A stretch of 64,000 nucleotides of DNA from a virus (IMGVR_UViG_3300020045_010129:2688-66687), one strand, 5' to 3'; numbered from the stretch's first letter, positions 1 to 45,902 are shown. Notes: generated by a model not told the origin, from the sequence alone. Numbers and translations: made by a program.

Positions 1-602
1 TTTTCACATTGTTCAATATTCAAGGTCAGAGGATTATCTTGATGCATTTTATAAACTTTACCTTTTGTCATTAAGAACTTCAAAAGTGATTGAATACGTT
101 CATCATCATTTTCATACAATTCTCTCAACATAGATAAATGTTTCAACCATGTGTTTGTATTAATTTTGCAATCTTCGGTCACACGATTTTGATATTCTTC
201 ATAGCTTAAATCTGTCCATGATTCTATTTCAGGTTTTTTTACGCCGAATTCTTCTCCATAATCCCCTAATCCATATTTTCCACCCTCTTTTATTCTATTA
301 GGTTCTATGTACCAAGCAACCAGTAAAGAGTCTAAAATTGTAGCTTGTATTTTTATATCTTTAAATATCTTCTCAAGGGCAGGTAGGTCAAAAAGAAAAA
401 AATTATGTCCAACTACAGTGTTATTAGGATTTTCAAAAACTTTCTTTACATCTTCTTTTTTATTTGTGGTTTTTATCTGCCATTTTTTATTACTATCTAA
501 AAAAGCAACCCCTAAAACGTGAAAGTCAGATTCTAATCCTTCCATATCTTCAAGAAGTCCTGTAGTTTCAATATCTCCAATAATAACACCGTCTAAATTC
601 AT
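1..602 (-). CDS. polA: Family A (T7/Pol I-type) DNA polymerase, N-terminal 3'-5' exonuclease domain; runs off the left edge
   Basis: Not in the ORF track. Manual translation from ATG at 602: MNLDGVIIGDIETTGLLED...VVGHNFFLFDLPALEK...ILDSLLVAWY...KYGLGDYGEEFGVKK...RVTEDCKIN, i.e. ExoI/II/III motifs in the layout of phage family A polymerases. Open to position 1. Confidence 0.85.
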   Translation of the reverse strand, partial: MNLDGVIIGDIETTGLLEDMEGLESDFHVLGVAFLDSNKKWQIKTTNKKEDVKKVFENPNNTVVGHNFFLFDLPALEKIFKDIKIQATILDSLLVAWYIEPNRIKEGGKYGLGDYGEEFGVKKPEIESWTDLSYEEYQNRVTEDCKINTNTWLKHLSMLRELYENDDERIQSLLKFLMTKGKVYKMHQDNPLTLNIEQCE

Positions 603-14037: not shown

Positions 14038-14799
14038 TTATCTTAAAGTTCTCTCGTAATCTTCATACCTAACTTTTACTATCTTAGACCTATTAGCATT
14101 CCTCAATACAAGTCCCTCTGGTTTTTTCAAAGCCGTTTCTGCTAAAGCTACATTTGTAGTAGGAATCGATTCATTAAGATTTTTTAATATTTCTTTATGC
14201 GAAAAATCACTTAAACTAAAGTCAACTAATGGTACATACTCAAATTTAGGAAATAGTGTTGTCATCTCAGAACGAGTTAAGAAATTTTGTCCATAAACTA
14301 TTCCATCTTTTGTTTCTGTTTCGCGCCATTTTGATATTTCAGCTAAATCTTTTTCAAGAATACTTAAATCATTATAGACAACAATATCAAAAACTCTAAA
14401 ACCATTTGTTTCTTTACCATATTGCTTAGAATTTGCAGAAGTCTTCCCTCCATAAAATTCGCCATAAATAACCGTTAAAACATCTGTTGTTGGAATATTT
14501 ACATTCAACGTATAAATACCGTTTACGATTTCTTGAGCATTATCAAAATACAAATCGTCGGAATGATGTAATATAAATTCTCGCGCGCCAATTAAAAATT
14601 CAGAACCGTAGCAAATAATTCTTGCATTTGTACCATCTATTTTCTCTGTTGCATACATTTCTTCGTCTAAGATAGGTGTCGTAAGCTCATCTAACAAACG
14701 TCCTTTTTCACCTAATTTATGTAAAGTTAGGATTGAAGGGTATTTTGTAAGAGTATTTATTTTCTCTTTTCCGTATTTTTTAATTAATTCTTTTATCAT
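14038..14799 (-). CDS. ATP-dependent RNA ligase (Rnl2-like nucleotidyltransferase)
   Basis: Motif I EKIDGTN, YGEFYG, FRVFDI, motif IV PEGLVLR, motif V KVRYEDY. Confidence 0.8.
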   Translation of the reverse strand: MIKELIKKYGKEKINTLTKYPSILTLHKLGEKGRLLDELTTPILDEEMYATEKIDGTNARIICYGSEFLIGAREFILHHSDDLYFDNAQEIVNGIYTLNVNIPTTDVLTVIYGEFYGGKTSANSKQYGKETNGFRVFDIVVYNDLSILEKDLAEISKWRETETKDGIVYGQNFLTRSEMTTLFPKFEYVPLVDFSLSDFSHKEILKNLNESIPTTNVALAETALKKPEGLVLRNANRSKIVKVRYEDYERTLR

Positions 14800-16360
14800 A
14801 TTTTTCTAATTTTATTTTACAAATGTAAGTATAATTTTCGGCATAAAAAAGAAAAACAGAAGAAAATTTACTTTAAACCAACATTTAAATACAACCACGT
14901 TAACTCATAAGGAGTAAAGTCTTCAATATTCTGAATTATAGTTCCCTCTGTTCTTATTATTTTTTCGCCGAAATCAGTAAAAAGATAGTAAACATTTAAT
15001 AAATCTAAACTCTTAGTAAAATATAATGAATATCTTAAAGATATTTCAGATTTATAAATATCAATGATGGTGTTTACCCAAGATTCATTTGCTCCTAATT
15101 GTATGGATATGTCTTCTGGATTGATTAAAGGATTTTCAACATATACTTCAATTATCTTCTGTTTTAATCGTTTCTGTGACGGTTGCATTTTTACTAAACT
15201 TTAAAGCTAATATCTTTCTTTTTACTGTGTTTACAGATTCTTTATTGACTCCTCGTTGCCAATAAAATTTTTCTATTCTTACAATTCTTTGTAGGGCGGA
15301 TTGTGTGCTTTTAGGCATATTTAATCTGTTTAATAGTTGTATGAACCTCTTCGATTTTATCTAGCACTGTTTTTATGTCCTCACACTTCTCTAACTCTAA
15401 CTGCAAATATCTTTTAAGTGTTTGCTCAACTGTTAAAAAATACCATTCATCAGTAAAAGTATAATCTACTAATTTTCCTGTTTTCTTTTTAGTTTCTTTA
15501 TCTACCTCTTCTTTTTGGCGGGTTTCGGTTAGTTTTAAAGTGCATCCACTTCCGTCTGTTATAATGCTATACTTGTCGTTAATTTGTATCATAATTTATT
15601 TATTTTTAAGTTTTTATTCGGCGACTCCAAGAGTTATTTTATTTTTAAACCAATCTGCTTCAACCAAAGTGTCGCAAGTATGGATAACCTCTTCATCTTC
15701 AAATGGTATATAATCTCCTCCTCCATTACCGTATGATGGGTCGCACCATCTTTCACCAATAGATTTTAAGATTAAATCATAAACCACTCTATCTTTTCGA
15801 AACCATTGTTTTTTAATTCTTGGTTTTATTATGTATTCTGTTGAATCCGTGTAGGTGTTTTTCATAATCCATAAGTAATTTAATTGTAAAATATAATCTG
15901 CTTTCTCGTCACATTCTTCTACGGTTTTACCAAACACTTGACAAAAGATATTTCCTTCTTCATTTATAATGTAATGTCCAAACCAATCTTCTCGTATTTC
16001 ATCATAACCTAAATCTGCTCTTAGTTTCATAAATATTCTTCAATTAATTCATCTAAACCTATTTCATCCATTTGATTAATCCAATCAATAAGTCGTGCTC
16101 TTTTTTCTTCTAGTTCCATAAATTTTCTGTTTTAATTGTTTAAGCACTCGTGTCTCGTATGCGCCGAAAAAATAAAGAAACAGAGGTCGGAGATAATTAC
16201 TGCAATGGAAGATACTACCTTTTATCCACTACATCCGTTAATACTGTTCGGAATCTGCGCTATTAAGCCTAGTAACAGCTCTGTTTCTAAATTTCACTCA
16301 TCTTTCAGCCTCTCAGTTTTTGTTCTGTTGGAGTTAAGGCAATTAAACAACACTGTGTTT

Positions 16361-16506
16361 GTGGAAAATGGAGGAATCGAACCTCCCTATGATAAGTCAC
16401 TTACTCCAACCAACTACTACTTGTTACGCACCTTTTCGCCTTTACGATTGACCGTCACGTTATCACCACTCACTGCTTTTGGAGCGACCTCAACAGCTAA
16501 TTTCCC
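16361..16506 (-). ncRNA. 146-nt tRNA-Ala-like / miniature tmRNA-like RNA
   Basis: 5' GGGAAAU pairs with 3' AUUUUCC (7 bp, G3:U70), discriminator A73 followed by C; perfect T-arm GGAGG-UUCGAUU-CCUCC; no canonical anticodon arm. Confidence 0.7.
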
Positions 16507-16646
16507 ATTTGATAGCTTACCTATCAGCACCCGTTAGATTATGCTTGCTAGACTATATGAGTTAGCCTTTTCAACCTGTAGCATTTAGGCTCATCTGCAA
16601 CTTAATATAAACCTGTGATGAGTTTTCTTTAACGTTTATACCTTGC

Positions 16647-16721
16647 TGGTGGTCTCAGAGAATTATGATATCCCGACCTGAGTGTTATGAGCACCCTGCT
16701 CTACCGCTGAGCTATGAGACC
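16647..16721 (-). tRNA. tRNA with CAU anticodon (more likely Ile2 than elongator Met), CCA encoded, aberrant T-arm
   Basis: GGTCTCA TA GCTC AGCGGTA GAGC A GGGTG CTCATAA CACTC AGGTC GGGAT ATCATAA TTCTC TGAGACC A CCA. G1:C72 argues against initiator; U3:A70 and C4:G69 favour Ile2. Confidence 0.85.
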
Positions 16722-16813
16722 TAATAAACACTTTTTACAGAAGTGAGAAACTGTTTTTGAAAAACTTAATAATTATGCCGTAGGAAGCTTTTTAAATTAA
16801 GTTATATAAAAAT

Positions 16814-16935
16814 AACCTCTCTATAGCCATAGATAATTGCAATCCCTTGTGAGGATAAGGAGCTAACACTTACTCCATTGGTTGCCCAATATAAAGAGGT
16901 TTACCGCATGTGCAGGTCACTTGTCAATTTCGGTA
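16814..16935 (-). ncRNA. Candidate multibranch structured ncRNA
   Basis: Closing stem AACCUCU/AGAGGUU encloses four hairpins, one with a GNRA loop (AUUGG-GCAA-CCAAU). Confidence 0.5.
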
Positions 16936-16941
16936 GCAGTC

Positions 16942-17157
16942 TCACTCAACTGAGGAAACATCGACTCTTACATACCCACACTTACTACGTCTTATAACTC
17001 CATCATCTACTAATGTTTCAATGTGACGTATTGCTGAATATTCAGAACAATTGTAAGTTTTAGTTATGTAGTTTGTTGCCACTGTACTTTTATCATTAAA
17101 TAGTTTTAGTATATCTTCTTTAACTATTTTATTGTATTTTTTAGTTCCGTTGTTCAT
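16942..17157 (-). CDS. Small HTH/winged-helix-like protein
   Basis: YITKTYNCSEYSAIRHIETLVDDGVI pattern. Confidence 0.35.
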   Translation of the reverse strand: MNNGTKKYNKIVKEDILKLFNDKSTVATNYITKTYNCSEYSAIRHIETLVDDGVIRRSKCGYVRVDVSSVE

Positions 17158-45157: not shown

Positions 45158-45902
45158 TTGTTCTCTGTTTTTGTTTATATTAATTGTTATTTTTATGATT
45201 CAACTTAGCTTGCTTTTTCTCATCTTTTGTAAAATAAGATTGGGCTTTTACTAAATAGTTTGTTTTATCTTCATTGAAGAAGAAGTTTCTAACTATTTTT
45301 GAACCGTCCTTTTTTCTTTCTATTTCGTGCGATACTAGTGTTTCCATTTTTATTTATTTAGTTGTTTAATTTATTCTTCAAATATACAAATTATATTTTG
45401 TAATTCCTAATTTTTCTTCTGTTTTTATTTTGTTTTCGGCGATTTTTTAAATTTATTTTTAATTCGGCGGAAAAAGAGTGAAACAGAATCTCTTAATTTC
45501 TCAAACCAAGTCCTAGTTAAAAAGTCGAGATAAAAATCAATCTCTTCCGAAGTTTCTAACACTGTAATAGTTAGACCGTCTTGTAAAAATATTGTAGTGA
45601 ATTCATCATCTGTTACCATCACTTTTATTTGGTCTTCATACACAACTATATCAGAAGTAACTTGTTCAAAATCTTCATCTTCTAATTCTACGCCATACTC
45701 TAGTTTCTTTAACTTTTGTACTAAAGAATCAGGTAATGGTATTCCTAAATCTTGATACTGTTCTTCTGTAAGCCCATTATCGCAAGTTGGTACTTGATAA
45801 GAGTCTTCTTTTTCTAATTTCTTTTCGGCGGCTTCTGTTACTACTTCGGCAATTCCCGTTAATGATAGTCTTATTCTTTTCATACTTCTTATTTCTATTC
45901 TA

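Follow-up and report, generated by a model that had tools for sequence, protein, structure and literature searches.

A conserved tRNA-shaped RNA from phage tRNA clusters in which a rod replaces the anticodon loop

Does the 146-nt gene on the minus strand of this virus fragment encode a miniature tmRNA, or a tRNA-like RNA of another kind? Read from position 16506 to 16361 of the window, by which we mean the whole 64,000-nt stretch of DNA that was analysed, the sequence opens with GGGAAAU-UA-GCUG and closes with GGAGG-UUCGAUU-CCUCC-AUUUUCC-A-C, and in this copy the acceptor stem pairs as G1-C72, G2-C71 and G3.U70 followed by four A-U or U-A pairs, with A73 as the discriminator. The original prediction took it for a stripped-down tmRNA or an alanine-charged decoy, with a new tRNA-like RNA class as its fallback. 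The features on which it was built, namely the acceptor stem GGGAAAU/AUUUUCC with G3:U70 and A73 and a perfect T arm, are all confirmed in the minus-strand sequence, and its two inner helices and two short frames (GEKVRNK followed by two stop codons, and AKRCVTSSSWLE followed by one) are present in the window sequence as well.

The window belongs to a 66.7-kb IMG/VR virus record (G000) that is about 47% complete and about 30% G+C, and whose polymerase exonuclease most closely resembles Flavobacterium phage proteins. The gene sits in an ORF-free island of ~900 nt (16030-16942), downstream of tRNA(CAU) at 16650-16721. Neither ARAGORN at its default setting nor Rfam, at gathering and E-value thresholds, makes a call on 16361-16506, and no Rfam family was found for the element. 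Taken by itself the window copy folds no better than its shuffles (z = -0.77).

Homologues within phage RNA islands

Homologues supply the decisive evidence that the 146-nt gene is more than chance. Relatives came from three exact-pattern scans: a 23-mer from the 5' end led to the JGI metagenome contigs L013 and L014, which hold the same variant with 5 substitutions per 146 nt relative to the window; an interior 22-mer led to L016, which lies within a virus record of 128 kb that is 90% complete (G002); and an interior 19-mer led to five further IMG/VR contigs, L021-L025. There are thus seven homologous copies in seven other contigs (L013 being identical to L014), and together with the window copy eight sequences were aligned. 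No homologue was found among GenBank phages by blastn, nor by several viral pattern scans and protein-anchored locus searches.

In all copies homology sets in exactly at G1 and stops 1-2 bases past the discriminator, and the flanks are unalignable in most pairs, close phage relatives being the exception. The base at -1 is U in seven of the eight copies. The discriminator is A in the same number and U in L025, and the base that follows it is C throughout (8/8), as it also is in several neighbouring tRNAs that were checked. The mature RNA probably comprises positions 1-145 plus an added CCA; a gene for a CCA-adding enzyme was not found in the window's record, which is about 47% complete. An attP site or host-derived 3' tRNA fragment was rejected, since a search of 185,579 species genomes gave no exact match to the 24 nt at the 3' end.

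A covariance model built on the eight sequences (R1) finds exactly one full copy per record, at 150-163 bits. One relative, G001, has a syntenic island without the gene, which is therefore dispensable for some relatives, and this absence, taken with the sharp ends of homology, indicates that selection acts on the gene as a discrete unit, which comes and goes in an RNA island of variable content. Sequence comparison identifies the element as one member of a conserved, unannotated phage RNA family encoded inside phage tRNA clusters.

Every copy is co-oriented within a phage tRNA cluster or RNA island. The gene follows tRNA-Thr(UGU) in L021, L023 and L025, adjoins tRNA-Asp in L021 and L022, and follows a tRNA-Met and a conserved spacer RNA of ~145 nt in the window, L016 and L024. 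A permuted, two-piece tmRNA lies about 250 nt upstream of the gene in G002/L016 and in G006/L024, with a canonical tRNA-Met between them; it matches RF04321 with 64.1 bits at L016:242-504 (equal to G002:C1:112789-113051) and with 58.4 bits at L024:3560-3824, and the L024 copy also reaches the alphaproteobacterial tmRNA model at 50.8 bits. This tmRNA of the relatives has G3:U70 and a tag ending in ...QRIAA, and default ARAGORN calls it but misplaces the tag inside the spacer RNA. The RNA island of the window is without a tmRNA. A hairpin of the spacer RNA carries a compensatory change (CUCAUC/GAUGAG versus CUCGUC/GACGGG), and this spacer is probably another unannotated RNA gene. In G002 the corresponding tRNA (L016:537-610) is canonical and scores 69.5 bits, and the window's tRNA(CAU) may be in decay or have become specialised.

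Several further features of these islands were observed. The motif CTGTTTCTTT(A)TTTTT(C)GGCG marks the end of the RNA island in three phages that have otherwise diverged (window 16160-16184, minus strand; G001 45786-45812; L014 ~428-447, minus strand), and a promoter-like box of the Bacteroidota -33/-7 type, TTTGCACAATAAA...TATATTTGCA, stands at the island start in L014 and G001 and is absent from the window. In G001 the syntenic island (G001:C1:45190-45830) has, where these RNA genes would be, ~650 nt of unrelated sequence free of ORFs; the island is a hot spot for the exchange of non-coding RNA genes. A homologue of RNA ligase (phrog_548, E = 1e-15) is encoded at 14038-14799 on the minus strand of the window, 1.5 kb downstream of the RNA island, a position resembling that in T4, where the RNA ligase gene 57B lies near the tRNA cluster. 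A small ORF with a lipoprotein-type signal peptide (…LAFSVTSCKQ…) lies inside the otherwise non-coding island of G002 (L020:8411-8583). R1 also gives three weak matches of 15-18 bits and of non-tRNA lengths, all within tRNA islands of relatives: G005:C1:113523-113694 (172 nt), G005:C1:112805-112923 (119 nt) and G002:C1:112671-112782 (112 nt), the last of which combines a 7-bp terminal stem with a T arm (GAGGG-UUCGAGU-CCCUC). All three are candidates for additional oversized RNAs of tRNA shape.

A cloverleaf chassis with a rod at the anticodon loop

Covariation among the eight sequences backs a cloverleaf with a 7-bp acceptor stem, a 4-bp D stem, a 5-bp anticodon stem and a 5-bp T stem (Table 1). 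Cloverleaf and rod together pair 98.3% of cells and include 11 pairs with double changes; the covariation score is 0.472, where shuffles give 0.240 (0/500), and in slid controls 23-48% of cells are paired. Compensatory changes occur in all four stems. The D stem holds no unpaired cell once the alignment is shifted by one column, and its changes are exchanges of C-G with U-A, of U-A with A-U and of G.U with A-U. The fallback of the original prediction, a new tRNA-like RNA class, gains support from these covarying D and anticodon stems.

The RNA has the four stems of 7/4/5/5 bp and the T loop UUCRANY of a decoding tRNA (RF00005), along with U8-A9, the D-loop G18G19 and a variable region of 3-4 nt. 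The chassis is tRNA-like by R1 as well, which scores ordinary tRNAs at 15-29 bits and each of the eight tRNAs of T4 at 10-26 bits. It lacks a 7-nt anticodon loop with U33 and an anticodon; 62-66 nt stand there instead, and since the anticodon loop is missing the RNA cannot decode. The D loop is enlarged to 18 nt with G18G19 kept, and a conserved connector of 7 nt stands where a tRNA has the single base 26. RF00005 at its gathering score has no match on 16361-16506. Stop-codon recoding was looked for in the window phage, and no signal was seen.

Table 1. Features of the RNA gene and its upstream neighbours in the window
Feature	RNA positions	Window coordinates	Strand	Evidence
tRNA(CAU), degenerate T loop AUCAUAA		16650..16721	-	RF00005 47.8 bits; missed by ARAGORN
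Spacer RNA between tRNA(CAU) and gene		16507..16649 (L016:611-756)	-	82% identical block, window 16657-16357 = L016 603-903
Whole RNA gene	1-146	16361..16506	-	homology from G1 to C74; R1 158.5 bits here
Acceptor stem, 5' strand, GGGAAAU	1-7	16500..16506	-	7/7 pairs kept in 8/8, 5 with double changes
D stem, 5' strand, GCUG, after U8 A9	10-13	16494..16497	-	pairs 10-35, 11-34 (C-G/U-A), 12-33 (U-A/A-U), 13-32
Oversized D loop, conserved AGGUCGCUCC including G18 G19	14-31	16476..16493	-	76% mean identity; GG invariant
D stem, 3' strand, CAGU	32-35	16472..16475	-	pairing with 10-13
7-nt connector GAGUGGU	36-42	16465..16471	-	86% identity
Anticodon-stem equivalent, 5' strand	43-47	16460..16464	-	44-115 A-U, C-G or U-A; 47-112 A-U or G-C
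64-nt insert (rod) replacing the anticodon loop	48-111	16396..16459	-	proximal part nearly invariant
Anticodon-stem equivalent, 3' strand	112-116	16391..16395	-	pairing with 43-47
Variable-region equivalent, AUAG	117-120	16387..16390	-	3-4 nt, poorly conserved
T arm, GGAGG / loop UUCGAUU / CCUCC	121-137	16370..16386	-	loop invariant; three stem pairs with double changes
Acceptor stem, 3' strand, AUUUUCC, and discriminator A	138-144 and 145	16362..16369	-	pairing, covariation

The rod is an imperfect hairpin of 62-66 nt among the copies. Its helix 56-62/95-101 shows changes of U.G to U-A and back only, and its tip (about positions 68-93), which contains the putative tag frames, is variable, with 69% identity and indels of 1-4 nt. 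Identity amounts to 1.00 in the T loop, 0.94 in the proximal rod, 0.86 in the connector, 0.66 in the T stem and 0.46 in the acceptor stem. Between the two clades the acceptor stem falls to 0.21, while the proximal rod, the connector and the D loop are 76-94% conserved across the same divide. That the proximal rod is conserved well above the chassis points to the rod as the active part of the molecule.

An alternative pairing joins the invariant D-loop segment AGGUCGC (17-23) to GUGACUU (107-113) at the rod base; it pairs 98% of cells with one break and shows no covariation. The RNA may adopt either this conformer or the one in which the rod base pairs with itself (49-53/107-111). A pseudoknot between UCGCUC of the D loop and GAGUGG of the connector, predicted by RNAalifold, was rejected: it shows no covariation, it suffers three single disruptive changes, and its loop geometry was judged impossible.

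The reading that we favour, and consider probable, is that this is a conserved phage tRNA-cluster family in which the rod carries the function and a tRNA chassis takes care of processing and stability.

Alternative explanations

Four other explanations were weighed and are taken here in descending order of probability. The gene could encode a decoding tRNA with a short intron in its anticodon loop, which a nuclease of host or phage removes before the phage RNA ligase seals the halves. Such a tRNA would have the canonical cloverleaf chassis and the insert at exactly the anticodon-loop site that are seen here, and the RNA ligase gene phrog_548 (14038-14799) lies about 1.5 kb downstream. ARAGORN does call weak tRNAs after arbitrary deletions, but these deletion-derived tRNAs are rich in G.U pairs and differ in anticodon (Thr, Pro, Tyr), as is typical of multiple-testing artefacts, and a brute-force deletion scan gave weak, inconsistent tRNA calls only. 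Inspection of the alignment found no split of the flanks that rebuilds a 7-nt loop with U33. A group I intron would need more than the 64 nt of the insert, Rfam has no matching ribozyme or intron family, and no recognisable intron class is otherwise apparent; furthermore, an 18-nt D loop and a 7-nt connector are unlike a decoding tRNA, and RF00005 stays below threshold. The order of conservation is also the reverse of that expected, in that the proximal insert (0.94) is far more conserved than the would-be exons (acceptor 0.46). We regard an intron as unlikely.

The shape could also serve as a processing signal only, or be what is left of a decaying tRNA: it would guide RNase P and RNase Z to their cleavage sites in the polycistronic transcript of the RNA island, with an insert that does nothing of its own. 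The degenerate T loop of the neighbouring tRNA(CAU) suggests that decay does occur in this island, the gene is absent from G001, and the acceptor end of L016 has three G.U pairs. However, the rod, connector and D loop keep their 76-94% conservation across clades whose acceptors are 21% identical, a neutral insert would not remain nearly invariant, and all four stems are kept by compensatory changes, which excludes simple decay. A functionless insert is improbable on these grounds. An ordinary intron-containing or decayed tRNA had been listed by the original prediction as the alternative that would overturn it, and both forms go unsupported, with the insert more conserved than the chassis and the stems compensated.

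A miniature tmRNA, or a mimic reduced to the tRNA-like domain (TLD), would be alanylated, bind SmpB and EF-Tu, and either add a tag that is not a degron or titrate SmpB. There is precedent for such an RNA: the tmRNA of mycobacteriophage DS6A has been described as 'little more than the TLD', and tmRNA is inhibited by a molecule similar to it (PMC4131195; PMC11915505). Like these, the present RNA is phage-encoded and has an acceptor stem and a T arm without an anticodon, and the window copy has G3:U70 and A73; short frames ending in stop codons do exist within it, and the permuted tmRNA in the same island of G002 and G006 indicates that these phages deal in tmRNA. By default ARAGORN reports nothing; at a threshold lowered to 90% (-ps90) it does call a tmRNA-type gene, at a level also reached by 1 of 100 shuffled genomes and with a score contributed mostly by the tRNA-like ends. 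The Rfam tmRNA models recognise fragments only, confined to the T arm and the 3' acceptor strand; these score 8-18 bits where the cut-offs are 47-84 and the genuine tmRNA adjacent in L016 reaches 64.1 bits, and RF00023 has no match in the window's record.

The comparison of homologues weighs against the tmRNA reading. The original prediction had made conservation of G3:U70 its own refuting test, and among the eight homologues pair 3-70 is GU in three, CG in two, and AU, UA and UG in one each; L016 also has G1.U72 and G2.U71, and three G.U pairs are counted at its acceptor end. The TLD of tmRNA is not known to have either a D stem or an anticodon stem. In place of that architecture with its long helix 2, the present RNA has a D stem and a 5-bp anticodon stem, both of which covary, and no conserved G3:U70, tag frame or helix 2. 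In relatives the helix-2-like extension is broken, with 80% of its cells paired, 8 left unpaired and not one double change; in the hairpin that covers the 'resume codon' 69% of cells pair, and compensatory changes are nearly absent from the inner tmRNA-like helices. A tmRNA-like three-way fold that was tried fit the L014 variant (5/5 substitutions on kept pairs, P about 0.006) and was broken by the distant homologues. That two relatives encode a genuine permuted tmRNA close to this RNA also counts against the reading.

The tag frames are likewise unconserved. Read from the conserved anchor CGUAAAG, the copies yield GEKVRNK, DEKVRNK, GSRYVTSSSWLE, GSRYVTRSSWLE, DSKVYTIKSS, GENGVQQVVVD, GSRYVTSSS and AQGT, which are unrelated peptides of 4-12 residues; the frames are broken by indels of 1-4 nt, no part of the insert is less conserved than the tag region, and neither a conserved resume position nor a C-terminal degron is found. 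An SmpB gene was not found in the window's record, which is about 47% complete. Judged by these sequences, the mini-tmRNA reading is largely refuted at the level of the family, and with it the Ala-charged decoy of SmpB or AlaRS; we hold either to be quite improbable. The full alanine identity set (G1-C72, G2-C71, G3.U70, A73) is present in the window copy and in L014. Because AlaRS needs only the acceptor identity set, these two copies may be alanylated, which would be a lineage-specific property and not the function of the family.

The least probable explanation is a circularly permuted analogue of Y RNA or YrlA whose stem binds the host's Ro60 orthologue (Rsr) and redirects RNA decay or repair. 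YrlA RNAs, some of them phage-encoded, combine a tRNA-like domain with a long Rsr-binding stem and are substrates of tRNA enzymes, and the bacterial Rsr-binding motif is GNCGAAN0-1G (PMC4201824); the present RNA likewise joins a tRNA mimic to a long stem, its D-loop GGUCG loosely resembles the vertebrate Ro-binding motif GGUCCGA, and the control genome Bacteroides thetaiotaomicron has a TROVE protein, but the bacterial motif is absent (GUCGCU stands instead), no TROVE gene occurs nearby or in five phage records (the window's own and four related), no Y-RNA or YrlA family of Rfam matches, and the RNA ends at its acceptor stem and not at the protein-binding stem, all of which makes this reading very improbable.

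Two other candidates were tried and rejected. Mimicry of 16S rRNA through the 9-mer CGUAACAAG, presumably identical to the 1492R primer site, was set aside as roughly one such match is expected by chance on a back-of-envelope estimate. An antisense role was dismissed because complementarity exceeds chance neither to the phage genomes nor to the neighbouring tmRNA, and because a duplex formed with the spacer RNA does not outdo its shuffled controls.

A proposed role and its precedents

In the chassis-and-cargo reading that we favour, the chassis would make the transcript a substrate for the host's tRNA-maturation enzymes, with RNase P cleaving at G1, trimming of the 3' end and addition of CCA, and host enzymes would probably modify the T loop. 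The chassis would also give the transcript stability, as engineered tRNA scaffolds do. The rod would carry the function, most likely by offering a conserved factor of the host or the phage a binding site or a decoy, and this factor might belong to the translation or RNA-processing machinery.

The closest known analogue is T4 species 1 RNA (rnaC, 139 nt), together with species 2 RNA (rnaD, 119 nt). These too are small stable RNAs inside a phage tRNA cluster and co-oriented with its tRNAs, and in rnaC a canonical T arm (CCGGG-UUCGAAU-CCCGG) is combined with long additional hairpins. The T4 RNAs are not homologous to the present family: the one match of R1 to rnaC, at 17 bits, is limited to the 3' part in which the T arm lies. 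The present family keeps all four stems of the cloverleaf, and its only insert falls exactly at the anticodon loop. The element is nonetheless like rnaC in being encoded in a phage tRNA cluster and co-oriented with it, and in having a tRNA-like T arm and terminal stem, a large extra structure and no decoding function. On sequence grounds it would belong with the tRNA-like RNAs of phage tRNA clusters of the T4 rnaC type, with a predicted stability of its own. The function of the T4 species 1 and 2 RNAs is still unknown (PMC3014915; PMC9697503).

A second precedent is man-made. In engineered tRNA scaffolds the RNA of interest is inserted in the tRNA anticodon arm (PMC3753655), so that a foreign structured RNA takes over the site of the anticodon loop, which is also the design seen here. 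The present RNA differs in being natural and phage-encoded and in its modified D loop and connector. It is also possible, though we put this forward tentatively and as a doubtful extension, that the RNA is a natural phage tRNA scaffold and that its 64-nt rod is a ligand or a mimic of some conserved component of the host, such as a factor of translation, tRNA maturation or RNA quality control, and that this modular design is widespread in phage tRNA clusters. The scaffold of Ponchon and Dardel reportedly confers tRNA-like processing and high stability in bacteria.

These observations bear on how tRNA-like genes in phage genomes are read. A G3:U70 pair and a short frame in one sequence are insufficient to call a mini-tmRNA, and some of these uncultured phages of 110-130 kb carry a genuine permuted tmRNA in the same RNA island. 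The T4 species 1 and 2 RNAs first made known that phage tRNA clusters can encode stable, tRNA-like RNAs that do not decode, and the present family is a cleaner case than those of T4, with an unmistakable tRNA chassis, an insert placed exactly at the anticodon loop, and an insert that is more conserved than the chassis around it. The rod provides a defined bait for pull-down, and the natural scaffold reading, if true, would give a function to RNAs of the T4 species 1 type.
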